This document shows positions 23,957 to 32,000 of a stretch of DNA of 32,000 nt, in pieces. Positions within the stretch are counted from its first letter, which is position 1, and every line of letters starts with the position of its first letter. Position numbers and translations under genes: made by a program. The notes below the pieces were generated by a model. That model made no database searches and was not told the origin of the DNA. It saw only the letters and a list, made by a program, of their open reading frames with translations. This DNA is from Halalkalibacterium halodurans (GTDB taxonomy: Bacteria; Bacillota; Bacilli; Bacillales; Bacillaceae_D), in NCBI RefSeq assembly GCF_004376175.1, contig NZ_SNUY01000015.1, positions 1-32,000 on the forward strand, read 5' to 3'.

Positions 23957-24895
23957 TCAGCTTACTTTACAAGGTGCCTTTTCTTTCTCCGCGGAGGCTA
24001 TCTCCTTCTCTTTCAGCCATGCCATGATAAAAATCATTCCAAGAATACAAGCTGTTCCTAGCCATTGAAACGCACCGAACGGCTCATGGAGCCAGACAAT
24101 CATCGTCACGACGGCTGCTAATGGCTCAACACTTCCGAGAAGACTCGTTTCTTTCGGGGAAAGAGTTTGCAAGCTTTCGATATAAAACCAAAACGCTAGC
24201 ATCGTCCCGAATACTACGACAAACCCTAAATAAACATACGTTTCTAGCTCAAATTGGGCGAGGTCTACGCGCCACGGCGGGTGGATGATACTTAAAGCGA
24301 CACCACCGATCACCATGGCCCAACCGACAATCACTAAGGAATCGTATTGCTTTAATAAAGGAACAGCGTATAGTGTATAAAAAGCGAGCGCCACGCCGGA
24401 AAGGATCCCCCAAACAATGGCGGGTGTGGGCACCGAAAGCTGAGAAAGTGATCCGTTCGTTAATAAGAAAAAACATCCGAGCAAGGCGAGGGACACAGTC
24501 ACAAAATCTCGACCTGTAAATGGGCTTTGCCTGCGAACGAACAAATACAAGATGATCATTGCTGGCGCTAAATATTGCAGCAATGTGGCCACTGCTGAAT
24601 TGCCATGCTTGATCGAAGCCATGTACGTATATTGAACCGCGAGCATACCTACAATTCCGAAAATAAGTAGCTTCCCTGCTGTCTGTCTCGTCTGCCAAAC
24701 CCGGAAAACTTGCGTCTGATCCTTTAACACACATTGTATAGTTAAAAGCAAGGCTCCTGCCGCAAGCAACCTAGTCGACACAAGCCAATTCACATCGACA
24801 TCGTATTGTTGGAAAAGCTTTTGGGCAACGGTGCCACCTACACCCCAACAAATGGCCCCAGTTAAGACGAGAATAACTCCTATCCACCGCTTCAT
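23957..24895 (-). CDS. EamA/DMT-superfamily transporter
   Basis: The 312-aa protein has ten predicted TM segments in two EamA-like halves ([14 protein letters not shown]..., [11 protein letters not shown]...). The RBS AAAGGTGGAGAG precedes ATG 24895, and the upstream part of the tracked ORF is not coding. Confidence 0.75.
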
Positions 24896-25007
24896 GCTTC
24901 TCTCCACCTTTAAATACCATAATGGTGTTATAATAAGGGAAAAATCAGCTAAAAAATACTCAAATCGGACGAAAAAATATAAGAATATTGAGGTGAATCG
25001 AGTGGAG

Positions 25008-25898
25008 ATGAACGAAGTGATCATTGATGAAAATTTGAAAGAATCGATTGATCTCTGGACATTCATGCTACCCATTATCTCTCATCGAACAACCATTCGA
25101 AAGAACATCCATGGCTACATGCCCCTTCATTGGCACGATGAGCTACAATTTGTCGTCATCATTCAAGGGGAAGCCCGCTTTCAAGTCAATGAGGAAGCCA
25201 TCATCGTTCAAGAGGGGGACGGGTTGTTCATCAATAGCGGGTGCCTTCATATGGCGGAGGATGGGAACGGATCAAACTGTGTCTATATTTGCTTAAATGT
25301 ACCGGCACAATCGATCATATCCCGTGAACTGTATACTGCTTACGTGGCTCCGTACGTTCAAGCGACAAACCTCCCTTACGTGCTTATTCCTTCAAGTGAG
25401 ATGTGGGGACAAAACATAATAGAAGCGACGTTAAATATCCATCAATGTCTCGAGGAGCAGCCCCCGTACTATGAGATGGACATTACGACAAAGCTAACGG
25501 TCATATGGAAAAACTTAATTACAAACGGATTTCCATTGGAATACGATCAGTCCGCCATGATTAAAAACCAACGAATGAAAGCGATGCTTCAATGGATTCA
25601 TCTCCATTACGGGGAGAACATTCGCTTGGATGATATAGCGAAAGCCGGACAGCTAAGCCGCTCTGAATGTTGTCGTTATTTCAAACGAACATTAAAAATG
25701 ACGCCACTTCAATATGTGACAGATTATCGAATCCAAAAAAGCGTAACTCTCCTCCAGCAGCCAGAATCGAACGTCACAGACGTTGCCTATCAAGTGGGCT
25801 TTAACAGCACAAGCTATTTCATCGATCAATTTCGCAAAGCGATGAATATGACACCACTGCGCTACAAAAAGTCAAAGCTCGAACGTTTAATTGATTAG
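25008..25898 (+). CDS. AraC-family transcriptional regulator (cupin sensor domain plus HTH_18)
   Basis: The N-terminal cupin is [20 protein letters not shown], and the C-terminal AraC HTH is [39 protein letters not shown]...[21 protein letters not shown]. It is divergent from the EamA gene. GTG 25002 is an alternative start. Confidence 0.8.
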
Positions 25899-25908
25899 GA
25901 GTGAAGCT

Positions 25909-26352
25909 ATGTATTTTCCTTCTAAAAAAGATATTGGGCTTGGGGGCATCTATTGGCTCGTTATTTTCCTATTCACTCTTCCTCCCGTCGTCTTTTCTGA
26001 CTTCGGTGTGTTCATGTTACCAAGCTTTTTCGATACCTATCCAGTGAGATTAACCTTTTTCTATACAATAGCAGGATTGTTGTTGTGGATTTGGTTTCGA
26101 ACAGGCTATACCGTAACAGAGGATTGGCTCGTCATCGAATACGGCCCTATCCAAAAGAAGGTTGAGATCGAAACGATTGAAAGTATTCGTGAAACAAAAA
26201 ATCCGTTTATCGATCCAGCTCTATCGATAAACAAACTTCAGTTATATTATGGTAACGGTAGACACATTGCTATTTCCCCTAAAGAAAAAGAACATTTTAA
26301 GAAACAGTTAGTAAAACGAAATCCGAAAATAAAAATCATCAATCAAAGGTAA
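25909..26352 (+). CDS. Membrane protein with C-terminal bacterial PH-like domain
   Basis: It has two N-terminal TM segments, then YTVTEDWLVIEYGPIQKKVEIETIESI...LQLYYGNGRHIAISPKEKEHF, which resembles bacterial PH (bPH) domain proteins. The RBS AGGAGTG lies 5 nt before ATG 25909. Confidence 0.55.
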   Translation: MYFPSKKDIGLGGIYWLVIFLFTLPPVVFSDFGVFMLPSFFDTYPVRLTFFYTIAGLLLWIWFRTGYTVTEDWLVIEYGPIQKKVEIETIESIRETKNPFIDPALSINKLQLYYGNGRHIAISPKEKEHFKKQLVKRNPKIKIINQR

Positions 26353-26647: not shown

Positions 26648-26868
26648 AACAAATCCCTTCTTTCGTTATAGAGTTGATCATATACCCTATCTACGATCTC
26701 CGCCTTCTTTCGTTTCAAACTTCGTTTATATTTACCATCATTCGTATGCTTGTGAATCATTGCACCCACAACTCTTAAAAAACAACAAAATAAGTAACCC
26801 ACCCTAGCTTAGCTGTCAAGTAGTAGTGGATTACTTTCTCCAAGAGTTATTACTTCAATAAATCAACA

Positions 26869-26884
26869 GGAGGCAACTGCCTCC
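26869..26884 (-). terminator. Short GC-rich hairpin after the heptad-repeat protein gene
   Basis: GGAGGCA-AC-TGCCTCC lies 19 nt after the stop at 26903. It is followed on the minus strand by the T-rich TGTTGATTTATT. Confidence 0.4.
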
Positions 26885-26902
26885 CTTTCTCATGCCCTTA
26901 CT

Positions 26903-28702
26903 TTAGGAAAATAGATGTTTGAGCCGTTGCCAAAAACCTGGTTTCTCTTCTTCCTCTTCTACCGTTGTTTCTCCTTCTTCCACTTCAATCGGCTCGGTTT
27001 TAAGAATGAACTGAACCGAGTGAATGTTTTCGTTTTTTGCTGAAACAAAGGACACGGCTTCAAAATCAGATTTATCATAGTCGTCGATCATAGCATCGAT
27101 CTCTTCTTGCATTTGCTCTGGTAAATCGTTCGTCTCATTCGTTAATTCTTTCGTTCCTTTGTGAAGCTCGTCAACACCCGTTTCTAAATGAGACGTCCCT
27201 TCGGCAATGCCATCAAGACCGGAATGAATCTCGCTGTAGGAATCTGCGAGTTGGGAAATTCCGTCCGTATACGAAATGAGCCCTCCATGAAACTCCCCGT
27301 AATTCGCGGCAAGTTGTGCCACTCCCTCTTGTAGTTCACTCAAGGAATCAAGTCCCTCCATCGTTTCTAACGAGGCTGAGAGCTCACTCGCAAGCGATGC
27401 CAAGTGGTTGCTCATGTCATGAACAGAGCTGCTTGTTTGTTCAAGGGTTGCTTCTACAGCCGCAAAGGCTTCTTTTACTGCATCGTATGTTCCTTTTGCC
27501 GTCTGGGCAGCTACATAAACTTCAAGCAATTGATCGACCGTTTGCCGGTTGGCATCACTCTTATATAATTGCTGAACCTCGGTTTCTGTTATCTGATGGT
27601 TAGGGATTTCATCCATAGCCTCGTCCAAAGCAGCGTACGCTTTCGCATAATTGACTTTTAATTGACTTAATCCATCGGCAACCTCACGAAGACCGTCGGC
27701 TAATTGCGATAAGCCTTCTGGCAATTGAGCTAGCTCACTAAGGTCCATCTCTGCGGATGAACCGCTAAGAGCCTTCTCTAGAGCGATAAGAGATTCTTCA
27801 ATCGTTTCCGACGCTTGAATTAATTCAGAAGAAGAATGCTTTACTTCGCTCATCCCCGCTTCGTATTTACTAGAGCCCTCACGCAGGCGATGAACGCCTT
27901 GATTTAAATCAGAGACTCCTTTATTTAATTCTGAAACACCATCGTTCATTTCTGCAATCGCATCGCTTAATGTCCGCATGTCCTTCGTCATCTCATCTAT
28001 TTCTGGTGCATCAATAGCCATTGACAATGGAATAGCGGAAATGTCTATGCCCTCCATTTCAAAATCAACTACATCTGCTAGGAGACTAAATTCCCCGTCA
28101 CTCTCAGGCATAACATTAAACGCGATTTGTCTTTTTCTCCCTACGTTTATAATCGTCGCATCGGGGGCTTGAATATGGCTAGCAACCTCCGTATCTAACG
28201 TCATCATGATTTGCAATACATAGTTTTCATAGAATACTGGGTCGACCGTCTCATTGGCTGATGTTTTGATCGTGAGAAGTAACCGTCCATCCTTTCCTGC
28301 TAATGACTCTGGAGCGACTTTTTTCCCATCTAACCGATAAGAGATATCAATATCCCATGGTAGTTTTTGATCCTTCATATTTCCTTGGTAATAAAACGTA
28401 CCTGATGAAACGTGTAATTCTACCTTATCCTCTGACTGCTCAATATCAGAGAGGTCTGTAAGATTTTTAACCGTTGTATATGGACCATAATCTATGATAG
28501 AGCCAGGTGTTGTCACCTCTAATATGTTCACTACATATATTTCGTTCAACGTTCCAGCAGCCTTTAAGCTGGCGTATACGACCTCATCCTTCGTCGTGAT
28601 GTTCCCCTCATTTGTAGCATGATTCGTTGCCGCTAACCCTCTATTCGCAGGCATAACAAGCAGCACCGTGATTAAAACGAGAAGTATTCTCTTTGTCTTC
28701 AT
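26903..28702 (-). CDS. Exported YhgE/Pip-like protein with three blocks of G-x-x-x-L-x-x heptad repeats and an acidic C-terminal tail
   Basis: The signal peptide is MKTKRILLVLITVLLVMPANRGLAA. The heptad blocks are DGVSELN-KGVSDLN-QGVHRLR-EGSSKYE-AGMSEVK, EGLSQLA-DGLREVA-DGLSQLK, and DGISQLA-DSYSEIH-SGLDGIA-EGTSHLE-TGVDELH-KGTKELT. There is no C-terminal TM segment. ATG 28702 overlaps the stop of the upstream MMPL gene (ATGA) and follows GGGAGGA. Confidence 0.75.
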   Translation of the reverse strand: MKTKRILLVLITVLLVMPANRGLAATNHATNEGNITTKDEVVYASLKAAGTLNEIYVVNILEVTTPGSIIDYGPYTTVKNLTDLSDIEQSEDKVELHVSSGTFYYQGNMKDQKLPWDIDISYRLDGKKVAPESLAGKDGRLLLTIKTSANETVDPVFYENYVLQIMMTLDTEVASHIQAPDATIINVGRKRQIAFNVMPESDGEFSLLADVVDFEMEGIDISAIPLSMAIDAPEIDEMTKDMRTLSDAIAEMNDGVSELNKGVSDLNQGVHRLREGSSKYEAGMSEVKHSSSELIQASETIEESLIALEKALSGSSAEMDLSELAQLPEGLSQLADGLREVADGLSQLKVNYAKAYAALDEAMDEIPNHQITETEVQQLYKSDANRQTVDQLLEVYVAAQTAKGTYDAVKEAFAAVEATLEQTSSSVHDMSNHLASLASELSASLETMEGLDSLSELQEGVAQLAANYGEFHGGLISYTDGISQLADSYSEIHSGLDGIAEGTSHLETGVDELHKGTKELTNETNDLPEQMQEEIDAMIDDYDKSDFEAVSFVSAKNENIHSVQFILKTEPIEVEEGETTVEEEEEKPGFWQRLKHLFS

Positions 28703-30762
28703 GAATGATCCTCCCGATAAAAATTTGCTTTCCATGTCGTTTTACGTATCGCCTTATCAAACACAAGTAGCATCGCAGGTAAGAAAAAGATTACTAGAAT
28801 AAAAGCAAGTAAAGCCCCTCGGCCAAGCAACAATCCGATCGATGAGACAACAGGGTTTGAAGACGTGAGCCATAAGATAAAACCAACACTTGATAAAATA
28901 GCGGCTGAGATCGAGATTGAAAATGTTTTTTCGGTTAACGTCTTTGTGATCGCTTGTCGTCTCGGCATTTTTCTTCGATTGACGAGATAGCCTTCCGTGT
29001 AGAGAATCGCATAATCAACTGTTGCCGCGAGCTGTACGGTACCGACAATTAAATAGCCTAAGTAAACTAAAGGCGCATCTGTAAAATAAGGCACCGCCAA
29101 GTTTAGCCATACAGCTGATTGAATCGTTAGCAATAAAATGACCGGAATCGAAATCGAGCGGAACGTCAACAGCAAGACGATCGCTATGGCCACAACCGTC
29201 AACAGATTCACAACCCTATTGTCTTTCATAATTGTTGTTTTCATATCATACAAGGAGACACTTTCACCTAGTGACAGGGCGTCATCCCCATAATACGACG
29301 CGGCTATTTCCTGCACCATTTCAACGACTGAGAAAGCCACCTCCCCTTCTACATCGGTTTCCGTATAAAGGATGATCTGACTGTAATGTTCAGAATAGAA
29401 CTGCTCGGTGACCGATTCATCAATATACTCGGATGGAATCGTAGCACTGACTGATTGGTTATAGGAAATTACATTTGTGATGTAGTCTACTTTTTCTAAT
29501 TCTTGCTCCATCTCCACTTCTCTGGCCACATCCCCTTTTGGAACGAGAAGGACGATCGGGGTTGATTTCCCGAATACCTCTTCAATCGTCGCCGTATCAC
29601 TACCTGCACGACTGGACTCCGGTAGTTCCCCGATTCCATAAATAAACGACGTTTGGCCTTGTGCTAGATAGCTAGGAACAATGAGAAGAAAAACAACAGC
29701 TAAACTGATAAATCGTATCTTCATGACCTCGTTCCCAATTGACTGAAAGCGAGGAAAGAACGGTCTATGCTGCGTTTTATCAATCCATTTATAAAAACAT
29801 ATAGTTAAGGCTGGTAAAAATACCATGACACTAATGAAGCTCAATACAATGCCTTTGACGAGATTTAACCCTAAATCTGCCCCGATTTCAAACTGCATAA
29901 ACGTCAGAGCTGTAAAGCCGAAGAACGTTGTGGCAGCACTGGCTGCGATCGCTGGAAACGATTTTCTAACGGCTATTTGCATCGCCTCTTCCGGATCTTC
30001 TGTCTGTTTCCGATAATCTGAAAACCGATGAAGGAGGAAGATGGCGTAGTCGAGGGAAACAGCTAATTGCAAAATCGGACTAACCGATTGAGTGACGAAG
30101 GACACTTCCCCAATAAAGATGTTCGTTCCTAAATTGATAAGCACAGATACACCGATCGCTGTAAGGAAAAACAATGGCTCGATCCACGACGTTGTGGAAA
30201 TGATGAGAATGATTACAATGATCGGGATTAGCAACGATGCGGCGTATATTGTTTCTTTTCCAGTCATTTGCTGCGAGACTGCCGTATTGACAGCTTCCCC
30301 TGACAAGGCATTGTCCTCACCGATTAACTCATAAATAGCATCCGTTACCGCCACTTCATCCCCTTCACGAATCGTTAACGAAAACAGTGCGCTTTCATCT
30401 TTGTAGTACGATTTGACGAGATCTTTATCCGCCATCTCGAGGGGCGTCTCCAAATCGATAACTTCATCGAGCCATATAACATCTGACACGCCATCGATCT
30501 CTTCTAGCTCTTTTTTATACAAAAGCGCTTCTTGCACGGTCACATCACGTATCATGACCCTAGCGTTAGAGACCGTACGATCAAACTCCTCTTCCAAGAC
30601 CTCAATGGCTTTCGTTGATTGTGCTTCGTCTGGTAAGTAGTCGATCATATTGTAGTTAACCGAAACAAAAAACAGTGCAATGGCACTAATGAACGTTAAA
30701 ATGGCAAACGAAAGGACGATCGTTTTTCTTTTTTTTATGATGAACGCTGCGATGTCTGTCAT
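28699..30762 (-). CDS. MMPL/RND-superfamily membrane transporter
   Basis: It has two repeats of one TM segment, an extracytoplasmic loop and five TM segments. Typical blocks are SPILQLAVSLDYAIFLLHRF and LAATVDYAILYTEGY. Start ATG 30762 (MTDIAAFIIKKRKTIVLSF...) has only a weak SD. Codons upstream of it in the tracked ORF lie in a perfect hairpin and are not coding. Confidence 0.8.
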   Translation of the reverse strand: MTDIAAFIIKKRKTIVLSFAILTFISAIALFFVSVNYNMIDYLPDEAQSTKAIEVLEEEFDRTVSNARVMIRDVTVQEALLYKKELEEIDGVSDVIWLDEVIDLETPLEMADKDLVKSYYKDESALFSLTIREGDEVAVTDAIYELIGEDNALSGEAVNTAVSQQMTGKETIYAASLLIPIIVIILIISTTSWIEPLFFLTAIGVSVLINLGTNIFIGEVSFVTQSVSPILQLAVSLDYAIFLLHRFSDYRKQTEDPEEAMQIAVRKSFPAIAASAATTFFGFTALTFMQFEIGADLGLNLVKGIVLSFISVMVFLPALTICFYKWIDKTQHRPFFPRFQSIGNEVMKIRFISLAVVFLLIVPSYLAQGQTSFIYGIGELPESSRAGSDTATIEEVFGKSTPIVLLVPKGDVAREVEMEQELEKVDYITNVISYNQSVSATIPSEYIDESVTEQFYSEHYSQIILYTETDVEGEVAFSVVEMVQEIAASYYGDDALSLGESVSLYDMKTTIMKDNRVVNLLTVVAIAIVLLLTFRSISIPVILLLTIQSAVWLNLAVPYFTDAPLVYLGYLIVGTVQLAATVDYAILYTEGYLVNRRKMPRRQAITKTLTEKTFSISISAAILSSVGFILWLTSSNPVVSSIGLLLGRGALLAFILVIFFLPAMLLVFDKAIRKTTWKANFYREDHS

Positions 30763-30798: not shown

Positions 30799-30846
30799 CC
30801 CCCTCATTTGTTGAGGGAACGTTAGAACGCTCAACAAATGAGGGGG
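30799..30846. repeat. Perfect 17-bp-arm inverted repeat (hairpin) between the MMPL gene and the IS
   Basis: The arms are CCCCCTCATTTGTTGAG (30799-30815) and CTCAACAAATGAGGGGG (30830-30846), with a 14-nt loop GGAACGTTAGAACG. On the minus strand it is followed by TTAAATTTT. Confidence 0.9.
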
Positions 30847-30892
30847 CCACCAAGCGAAAGCGCGGTAGTTAATAAGCAAATAACATGAAAAA

Positions 30893-32000
30893 GAGGGTTA
30901 CTCCTTGGTAGAATCTTAGTCAACCAAAACTAAATCACAAACAAAGGAGTAACCCCTCATGCAAAAGAATAACACAGTATATCCAAATTTAAAACAGATT
31001 GAGCAATTAGTTTGGAGGCAATTACAGGAAACCTTCTCAAAGGTCATGAAAACACTATTAGAGGACATGGACAAGCAGATTGCAGAAGAACGAGATAAAA
31101 AACGCTATCGACTCATTGATAAAAGAAAATATCATATAACTAGTCTCTTCGGAGAGATTGAATTAAATCGTAATTATTACCGTGACCGGGAGACAGGGGA
31201 ATATGTTTTTCTCCTTGATCGTTATTTAGAGTTTGAGGATGCAGGTTCTTTTAGCCCATTGATTGAGGAGGTAGCTATTGAATTAGCTGTTCAGGGACCT
31301 TCCTATCGAAAAGCAGCCAGTACGTTAGAAACCCTTTTAGGCTATCGGGTTATTAGTCATGAGGCAATCCGTCAACACTTATTACAAGTTTCGAGTATTC
31401 CAAAAAAGCGTGAGCATGTACATCAACCTGTATTATTTGTAGAGGTCGATGGTTTGTTTGTAAAACGTCAAGGTAAACGAAAAAAGGGAAAAGAAGAGAA
31501 AATAGCCGCAGTTCATCAAGGCTGGGAAGTCAATGGGAAACGAGTAAGACTGAAGAATAAACGCCATTTCGTACATGAAGGGAACCAGCCATTTTGGGAG
31601 GCGTTTGAGGACTTTCTCATCGAAAACTTTGAGTATGATCCAACCATTCATAAGTTGGTAATAAATGGAGATGGTGCAAATTGGATTACAACTTGTCGTG
31701 ACTATTTCAAAGATCGTGCATTCTTTTCGCTTGATCGTTTCCATGTGGCACGGGAGATTCGAAGTTTGTTCCGTCATCACCCACGTTATCGTCCAATTCG
31801 TAAGGCGCTTGCATCATATGATTATGAGAAATTGCTTACAGAGCTTAACAGTGCAGTCGGAACGCTAGAGGATGATGAGCAAGAGGAACGTCTAGAAGCA
31901 TTTATTCGCCAATTAGAGAAATATCCAGAAGCCTTGGGAGATTATCGTAACTGGCTTAAAGAACAGGGTATAGATACAACAGGAATGCGTCCGATGGGTA
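30893..32000 (+). mobile_element. Left part of an ISLre2-family (UPF0236) insertion sequence; the left boundary is uncertain and the right end is outside the window
   Basis: It contains the transposase ORF below and a 5' leader stem-loop. No terminal inverted repeat can be defined without the other end, so the true left end lies somewhere in about 30847-30893. Confidence 0.6.
30959..32000 (+). CDS. ISLre2-family transposase (partial, continues beyond the window)
   Basis: The frame is open for 347 codons from ATG 30959 (AAAGGAG 8 nt upstream) to the window edge: MQKNNTVYPNLKQIEQLVWRQLQETFSKVMKTLLEDMDKQIAEERDKKRYRLIDKRKYHITSLFGEIELNRNYYRDRETGEYVFLLD...VEVDGLFVKRQ...INGDGANWI...LDRFHV. This pattern is typical of UPF0236/ISLre2 transposases. 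It is not in the ORF track because it has no stop in the window. Confidence 0.8.
   Translation, partial: MQKNNTVYPNLKQIEQLVWRQLQETFSKVMKTLLEDMDKQIAEERDKKRYRLIDKRKYHITSLFGEIELNRNYYRDRETGEYVFLLDRYLEFEDAGSFSPLIEEVAIELAVQGPSYRKAASTLETLLGYRVISHEAIRQHLLQVSSIPKKREHVHQPVLFVEVDGLFVKRQGKRKKGKEEKIAAVHQGWEVNGKRVRLKNKRHFVHEGNQPFWEAFEDFLIENFEYDPTIHKLVINGDGANWITTCRDYFKDRAFFSLDRFHVAREIRSLFRHHPRYRPIRKALASYDYEKLLTELNSAVGTLEDDEQEERLEAFIRQLEKYPEALGDYRNWLKEQGIDTTGMRPMG

Follow-up and report, generated by a model that had tools for sequence, protein, structure and literature searches.

In a stretch of 32,000 nucleotides (nt) of Halalkalibacterium halodurans DNA (contig NZ_SNUY01000015.1, positions 1 to 32,000, referred to as the window), the gene for a transporter of the MMPL family is directly followed by a gene for an exported coiled-coil protein of 599 amino acids (aa), which will be called the partner. 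The locus raises the question of what such a protein does beside a pump in a bacterium with a single membrane. An initial annotation of the sequence had described the two as an MMPL pump and a Pip-like protein, possibly comparable to the pump-adaptor pairs of diderm bacteria. The pairing was found to hold across the single-membrane Bacillota, and for this reason the partner probably serves the MMPL transporter of the upstream gene as its own extracytoplasmic accessory subunit and would be in physical contact with it. The core of the locus consists of four features, given in window coordinates:

28699..30762, minus strand: MMPL-family (RND superfamily, HAE3-like) transporter, 687 aa (Pfam, hydropathy, alignment)
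28699..28715, minus strand: coupling junction, consisting of the Shine-Dalgarno (SD) sequence GGGAGGA, a 6-nt spacer and an ATGA stop/start overlap (read from the sequence)
26903..28702, minus strand: partner gene, 599 aa, coding for an exported protein built of a beta base and a stalk in the form of a coiled coil (identity to BH0721, AlphaFold2 (AF2) model)
26868..26885, minus strand: terminator-like hairpin (consensus scan)

The Gene Junction

The stop codon TGA of the MMPL gene lies at 28701-28699 and the ATG of the partner gene at 28702-28700, resulting in an ATGA overlap at 28699-28702. The GGGAGGA sequence at 28709-28715 is located within the coding end of the MMPL gene, 6 nt 5' of the partner ATG. 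Both elements had been pointed out in the initial annotation and were read again from the sequence. Judged by this junction, the two genes form a translationally coupled two-gene unit, and a fixed stoichiometry or co-assembly of pump and partner may be implied. The terminator-like hairpin begins 17 nt past the partner stop codon and marks the end of the unit.

The reading frame of the MMPL gene extends up to a TTG at 30879. The start was placed at the ATG at 30762, giving a protein of 687 aa, because the orthologues align from the sequence MTDIAAF. The starts of the partner orthologues differ by no more than a few residues from that of the 599-aa form and do not fall at the upstream ATG at 28735. 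At 99% identity, the partner corresponds to BH0721 of H. halodurans.

Conservation of the Pairing

The partner belongs to a large family, with more than 120 full-length relatives (~600 aa) at 48-63% identity. Among 1.84 billion representatives, 5355 clusters were identified at E<=1e-3 and 1214 at E<=1e-30, and hundreds of the ~600-aa relatives have a conserved C-terminus in common. By a motif scan on one genome per species, a relative of the partner was detected in 340 species, and 80 loci were retained. An orthologous MMPL gene (65-78% identity) was located directly upstream and on the same strand in all 80 retained loci. A second survey relied on 401 evenly sampled Bacillota genomes, 26 of which gave a partner match at E<=1e-20; all 27 loci from these genomes showed the MMPL gene upstream, at partner identities down to 24%. 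Both samples combined, this arrangement, with the MMPL gene immediately in front and in the same orientation, applies to 107 of 107 loci. The module spans Bacillaceae to Clostridia, including Dehalobacter and Lachnospiraceae, and the conservation of the gene neighbourhood, which the initial annotation had proposed to check, was thus established. The junction is also kept: with start codons picked by a heuristic, 96 of 106 loci have the MMPL stop and the partner start separated by -14 to +20 nt, with an SD inside the 3' end of the MMPL gene. Of the MMPL paralogues of a genome, just one, of ~690-700 aa, is accompanied by a partner.

With the pump as query, 49 genomes of the same 401-genome sample were identified. 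Fourteen MMPL loci without a partner match in the single-sequence search were searched again with a partner profile, and a partner of 509-908 aa was identified directly downstream in 12 of them, split in one. In the split case (L110:2329-4019:+), two open reading frames (ORFs) of 144 and 412 aa lie 3' of the MMPL gene, as the result of a frameshift in a pseudogene or of an error in sequencing.

A subgroup of longer MMPL proteins of 804-861 aa was observed at five loci, L124-L128 (for example, L124:3420-6005:-), with an insert of ~95 aa in the second outer loop. A large overlapping ORF lies downstream of these genes (for example, L124:2-3445:-); the complete ones code for 1121-1166 aa, while the remaining ones extend past the edge of the locus or contig. 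Similarity to the partner coil was detectable for two of the five large ORFs, and subgroup and large ORF look like a bigger version of the same module. The rule that an MMPL protein has either a coil in cis or a partner in trans fails here, with a loop insert and a downstream ORF being present together.

Natural Fusions of Pump and Partner

Four lineages were identified in which pump and partner are fused in one reading frame (P0174, P0273, P0274, and P0275; 1294-1347 aa). Such fusions are classical evidence of a functional link. In all four, the Met and the hydrophobic segment of the partner are retained at the junction. Since the C-terminus of the pump is cytoplasmic, the retained segment would take the partner part outward, so that the fusion would be topologically sound. 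The form represented by P0174 was found again in at least four separate Lachnospiraceae assemblies, and a singleton assembly error was rejected as its origin for this reason.

Structure of the Partner Protein

The whole partner was modelled by AF2 with 76 relatives, resulting in a mean predicted local distance difference test score (pLDDT) of 86.7. From the N- to the C-terminus, the following parts were distinguished:

28631..28702, minus strand: N-terminal signal-type segment, residues 1-24 (alignments, pLDDT)
28028..28612, minus strand: beta base, residues 31-225, two beta-sandwich subdomains (AF2, structural comparison by VIA)
27077..27997, minus strand: antiparallel coiled-coil stalk, residues 236-542 (AF2, TIGR03057)
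26987..27070, minus strand: return segment, residues 545-572, with the motif SDFExVSFVS...VQF (AF2, alignment)
26906..26986, minus strand: variable acidic linker, residues 573-588, and C-terminal amphipathic helix GFWxRLxxLF, residues 589-599 (alignment)

The partner is exported. Its N-terminus consists of a basic start and a hydrophobic run with a conserved Pro18, and Ala24 occupies position -1 of an A-x-A-like site; cleavage of the segment is predicted. A variable linker of low confidence follows, and the pLDDT is below 50 at residues 20-27. Since the sole hydrophobic segment is N-terminal and none was detected after residue 25 in a hydropathy scan, the partner has no C-terminal membrane span, in agreement with the initial annotation. 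The beta-rich N-terminal domain of about 200 aa described there was recovered as residues 31-225, with a pLDDT above 95 in the model of the whole protein; when modelled alone, the base gave a pLDDT of 94.2 and a predicted template modelling score of 0.83. No Pfam or NCBIfam model matched the base.

The stalk is formed in the model by helices 236-313, 321-364, 386-446, and 451-542, which constitute an antiparallel coiled coil of ~300 aa. The partner matches the xxxLxxG repeat model TIGR03057 with E 4e-16, and the three heptad blocks of the initial annotation correspond to period-7 [LIVMF]xxG blocks starting at residues 252-273, 327-341, and 492-513. The lengths of the modelled helices would allow a folded four-helix rod of ~12 nm, or a single hairpin with a matched break of up to ~19 nm. 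Behind the coil, a strand at 560-569 (pLDDT above 95) rejoins the beta base in the model, and residues S551, Q564, and F565 of the return segment are invariant in the alignment. Structural alignments by VIA to mu-homology domains extend to residue ~571. The acidic linker holds the sequence EEEEE and is of low confidence in the model. The poly-Glu stretch near the C-terminus had thus been seen correctly, but it is a linker and not the tail, as the protein ends in the GFWxRLxxLF helix. This helix comprises residues 590-598 in the model, with W591, L597, and F598 invariant or nearly so, and persists in relatives from Clostridia whose identity is down to 25-30%.

Base, return strand, and terminal helix are better conserved than the coil. 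The total length of the relatives ranges from ~436 to more than 900 aa, the coil length being variable. This pattern of a firm base and helix and a variable coil fits a docking base carrying a spacer-like stalk. Run against solved structures, the partner profile retrieved only designed or generic coiled coils, and a search of a protein atlas gave only unnamed Bacillota clusters.

The MMPL Pump

The pump matches Pfam PF03176 with E 2e-43 and 149 bits (cut-off 20.5) in two stretches, representing the two MMPL repeats. It also matches TIGR00921 (HAE3) and TIGR00833 (ActII-type), both below the equivalog cut-offs. By hydropathy scanning, a crude method, 11-12 hydrophobic segments were counted in a pattern of 1+5/6 and 5. 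The extracytoplasmic loops comprise residues ~34-170 and ~368-525, the second being a plain loop of 158 aa, and the scan gave no coiled-coil insert in either loop, in contrast to the many MMPL proteins that have one in the second. The nearest solved relatives by profile are MmpL4 and MmpL5 (E 4e-12).

In MmpL3, Asp-Tyr pairs constitute the proton relay. The corresponding pairs of the pump, expected in the fourth and tenth spans, are D238-Y239 and D583-Y584 and do not vary among 13 orthologues; D583-Y584 aligns with both DY motifs of MmpL4, being the only pair covered by the alignment obtained. Because these relay pairs are kept, the pump looks functional and proton-driven.

Control Region and Flanking Sequences

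In 74 of 80 relatives, a divergent regulator gene of the TetR_C_8 type is located upstream of the pump gene. The intergenic region of the relatives contains a conserved inverted repeat over a TTGA/TATAAT promoter and a strong CAAGGAG SD. A divergent TetR repressor fits the inducible efflux of an amphiphilic compound. Two further features were identified in the corresponding part of the window:

30799..30846, minus strand: hairpin with perfect 17-bp arms, followed by TTAAATTTT (read from the sequence; partly caught by the terminator scan)
30959..32000, plus strand: UPF0236/ISLre2-type transposase ORF of an insertion sequence, running off the window end (Pfam UPF0236, 2.7e-107)

The hairpin, with its 17-bp arms and T-rich tail, sits 36 nt 5' of the MMPL ATG. 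The inverted-repeat operator, the promoter, and the CAAGGAG SD of the relatives were not found between 30763 and 30960, the hairpin standing in their place, and the ATG at 30762 is not preceded by a good SD. The window holds neither a TetR gene nor a remnant of it, and the insertion sequence occupies its place. In this strain, the control region is replaced by the hairpin and the insertion sequence, and the operon may here be silent or deregulated, or may give rise to a near-leaderless mRNA.

RNA-library contigs of a related strain (three runs, all from one study) cover 26849-30758, ending 4 nt short of the MMPL ATG, and do not cover 30824-32000. They give a weak hint that the operon is expressed, the contigs as such not showing starts, strand, or level. 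At 26813-26849, just 3' of the operon terminator, the same contigs replace 35 bases of the window by 512 others, a difference between the strains. An AraC-family regulator gene and a bPH_4 (bacterial PH-domain) gene at 24831-26352 on the plus strand converge on the 3' end of the operon; neither is conserved beside the module in the 80 related loci.

Role of the Partner

Other MMPL proteins of the related genomes carry the same heptad repeat in cis, for example a 1056-aa Paenibacillus protein at L109 and P0276, and the TIGR00833 profile gives a weak match to the partner coil in its insert region. Because the pump is plain, the base and the coil reside on the accessory protein, and the coil occurs in cis in these MMPL proteins, the partner was read as a trans-encoded accessory. 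Its base and C-terminal helix would dock onto the outer-face domains of the pump or onto the membrane surface, and the stalk would project into the wall zone. The partner would in this way supply in trans what MmpL4 and MmpL5 get from MmpS and their built-in coiled-coil tube. It may stabilise an oligomeric pump, by analogy to MmpS5 and the MmpL5 tube, and may give a path or a hand-off point that takes hydrophobic substrates away from the membrane. The stalk could accordingly serve as a conduit, as an arm for hand-off, or as a scaffold for oligomerisation, on a pump that would be proton-driven and, in the relatives, serve the TetR-repressed, inducible efflux of an amphiphilic compound. That several stalks in a fixed oligomeric machine form a hollow or grooved helical conduit, leading lipophilic substrates through the inner wall zone, is a tentative proposal and rather doubtful.

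Several observations weigh against an accessory subunit of this kind. At two of the 14 MMPL loci searched again with the partner profile, a TetR-like gene and no partner was found downstream (L119:2174-2749:+ and L123:2846-3427:-); these pumps are the most distant ones (27-29% identity) and belong to GC-rich genomes. The partner gave no MmpS match in Pfam at E<=0.01, and its base shows no detectable relation to MmpS. The best structural match of the base by VIA is a mu-homology domain (Z 9.3, root-mean-square deviation 4.7 Å over 182 aligned residues), and the second subdomain resembles Ig- and macroglobulin (MG)-like modules, including those of pilins and adhesins; as scores of Z 8-9 and ~5 Å lie in the range of common arrangements, these folds assign no function. 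Likewise, the matches of the coil, the stalk of PrgA (Z 13.8), YscO, and SMC coils, are generic for long helices. The N-terminal segment may be cut off or may serve as an anchor; in the first case, the partner would have to stay at the pump by the proposed docking. Finally, the native promoter, operator, and SD are gone in the strain studied here.

Some of these observations suggest other roles. The partner might be a surface or wall protein, serving in adhesion, as a scaffold, or as a phage-receptor stalk of the Pip/YueB type, and be merely co-expressed with the pump or dependent on it for placement or lipid, outside the transport path. The partner shares its xxxLxxG coil with the phage receptors Pip and YueB/EsaA, the top match of the coil is the stalk of an enterococcal surface protein, the second beta subdomain recalls Ig-like modules, and surface proteins with a stalk typically vary in its length. 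Yet the Pfam search revealed neither a wall-anchoring motif nor a known binding domain, and the strongest conservation lies in the membrane-proximal base and the C-terminal helix rather than in a distal tip. The strict adjacency, the coupling, and the repeated fusion to one MMPL paralogue would not be expected from mere co-regulation, which makes a surface protein unlikely. A second possibility is a substrate-binding or hand-off protein, that is, a chaperone of exported lipids which takes the cargo and then dissociates. The signal peptide looks cleavable, as for a soluble exported protein, beta-sandwich domains often bind ligands, and the mycobacterial MmpL systems use periplasmic helpers such as Rv0455c (PMC12501195). 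For a shuttle, however, a rigid coil of 300 aa is hard to explain, and the fused forms tether the partner to the pump. Lipid-binding folds, EsaA, and MmpS were not among the Foldseek and VIA matches listed for the base, an absence from the listing that does not exclude them. A shuttle is therefore also considered improbable.

Two relations to known families were weighed as well. The NCBI name of the partner, YhgE/Pip domain-containing protein, and the common heptad repeat suggest a degenerate YhgE/Pip protein that has recently lost its C-terminal membrane domain. At E<=0.01, the partner matches neither TIGR03061, the YhgE N-terminal model, nor TIGR03062, the model of the C-terminal multispan membrane domain, nor the EsaA N-terminal model TIGR03929. 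In contrast, a genuine YhgE taken as a control from a related genome matches both YhgE models at ~1e-62 and carries TIGR03929 too. In a profile comparison (hhalign), ~90 coil residues aligned with YhgE and nothing else. With a similarity confined to the coil and with abundant full-length relatives sharing a conserved C-terminus, a truncated YhgE was rejected as very improbable, and the partner represents a whole conserved family. The designation as Pip-like holds for the coil repeat but not for the beta domain and the C-terminus, which are specific to the family. Homology to the periplasmic adaptor (membrane fusion) proteins of diderm bacteria, with the same mode of action, is hardly credible. 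It would be suggested by a coiled-coil hairpin beside an RND-superfamily pump and by weak VIA matches of the coil to HlyD (Z 9.2) and LipC (Z 9.5). These matches involve helices only and lie below the noise level quoted for helical models, no HlyD or membrane fusion protein (MFP) domain was matched in Pfam at E<=0.01, the base fold and the domain order differ, and an outer-membrane channel is lacking; this candidate was rejected, too. The dedicated accessory subunit of the MMPL pump remains the probable role of the partner.

No published description of the MMPL-partner pair was found in the literature searched, consistent with the statement of the initial annotation that such a pair is uncharacterised.

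Comparison to Known Systems

The AcrA/HlyD adaptors resemble the partner in being accessory proteins with an alpha-helical hairpin, encoded alongside a pump of the RND superfamily. Their domain set differs, since no lipoyl, beta-barrel, and membrane-proximal set was recognised in the partner, and the partner has no outer-membrane counterpart to contact. The diderm adaptors, to which the initial annotation had likened it, show no sequence relation, and MmpS together with the built-in tube of MmpL4, MmpL5, and MmpL10 is the closer analogy (PMC12501195, PMC12346298, PMC12183618). With YhgE/Pip and EsaA/YueB, the partner shares an xxxLxxG heptad coil outside the membrane of Gram-positive bacteria; in contrast to them, it lacks the YhgE N- and C-terminal and EsaA N-terminal domains, and its gene is linked to an MMPL gene.

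FarR-FarE of Staphylococcus aureus is a system in which an MMPL fatty-acid efflux pump is regulated by a TetR-type protein. It has a monoderm MMPL pump and a divergent regulator of the TetR family in common with most relatives of the locus, whereas the regulator gene is missing from the window. To our knowledge, no coiled-coil partner of FarE has been reported. With the ActII-3-type pumps of TIGR00833, the module shares the transporter superfamily and the type of repeat, which forms a long coil directed outward. Unlike the two-gene module, these pumps hold the coil in one polypeptide and show no beta base.

Most features are shared with MmpS5-MmpL5 and MmpS4-MmpL4 of Mycobacterium tuberculosis and Mycobacterium smegmatis. 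The coiled-coil insert of MmpL5, on which efflux depends, forms a trimeric tube of ~13 nm. This tube is stabilised by the Ig-like domain of MmpS5, and mmpS5 and mmpL5 are joined by an ATGA overlap (PMC12501195, PMC12346298). The coil of MmpL10 was shown to drive trimerisation (PMC12183618). Like these systems, the module consists of an MMPL pump with conserved Asp-Tyr pairs and an accessory gene joined by an ATGA overlap, and the layout of the accessory protein is similar, with a hydrophobic helix at the N-terminus followed by a flexible linker and a beta-sandwich domain; an antiparallel coil of 12-13 nm off the outer face and, in the relatives, a repressor gene adjoining the operon complete the likeness (PMC12346298, PMC12501195). 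In contrast to MmpL4 and MmpL5, the coil is part of the accessory protein and not of the second outer loop of the pump, and the gene order is reversed, with the pump first. The base is a double sandwich of ~200 aa without a sequence match to MmpS, an amphipathic helix is added at the C-terminus, and the host has a single membrane.

According to the structures of 2025-2026, the MmpL pumps of mycobacteria depend on an MmpS adaptor and on a tube of coiled coils, which raises the questions of where the substrate goes past the tube and why a tube is required. A widespread Bacillota module, detected in ~340 species by the motif scan and in roughly a tenth of the phylum-wide sample, puts coil and base on a separate protein. 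As its hosts are devoid of an outer membrane, the module offers a simpler and genetically separable system for the study of stalk function. An accessory role would also give a function to a large family so far labelled as YhgE/Pip domain-containing or hypothetical proteins. If the stalks do form a conduit, they would be the trans-encoded counterpart of the MmpL5 tube, and envelope-spanning export stalks would not be a speciality of bacteria with an outer membrane.

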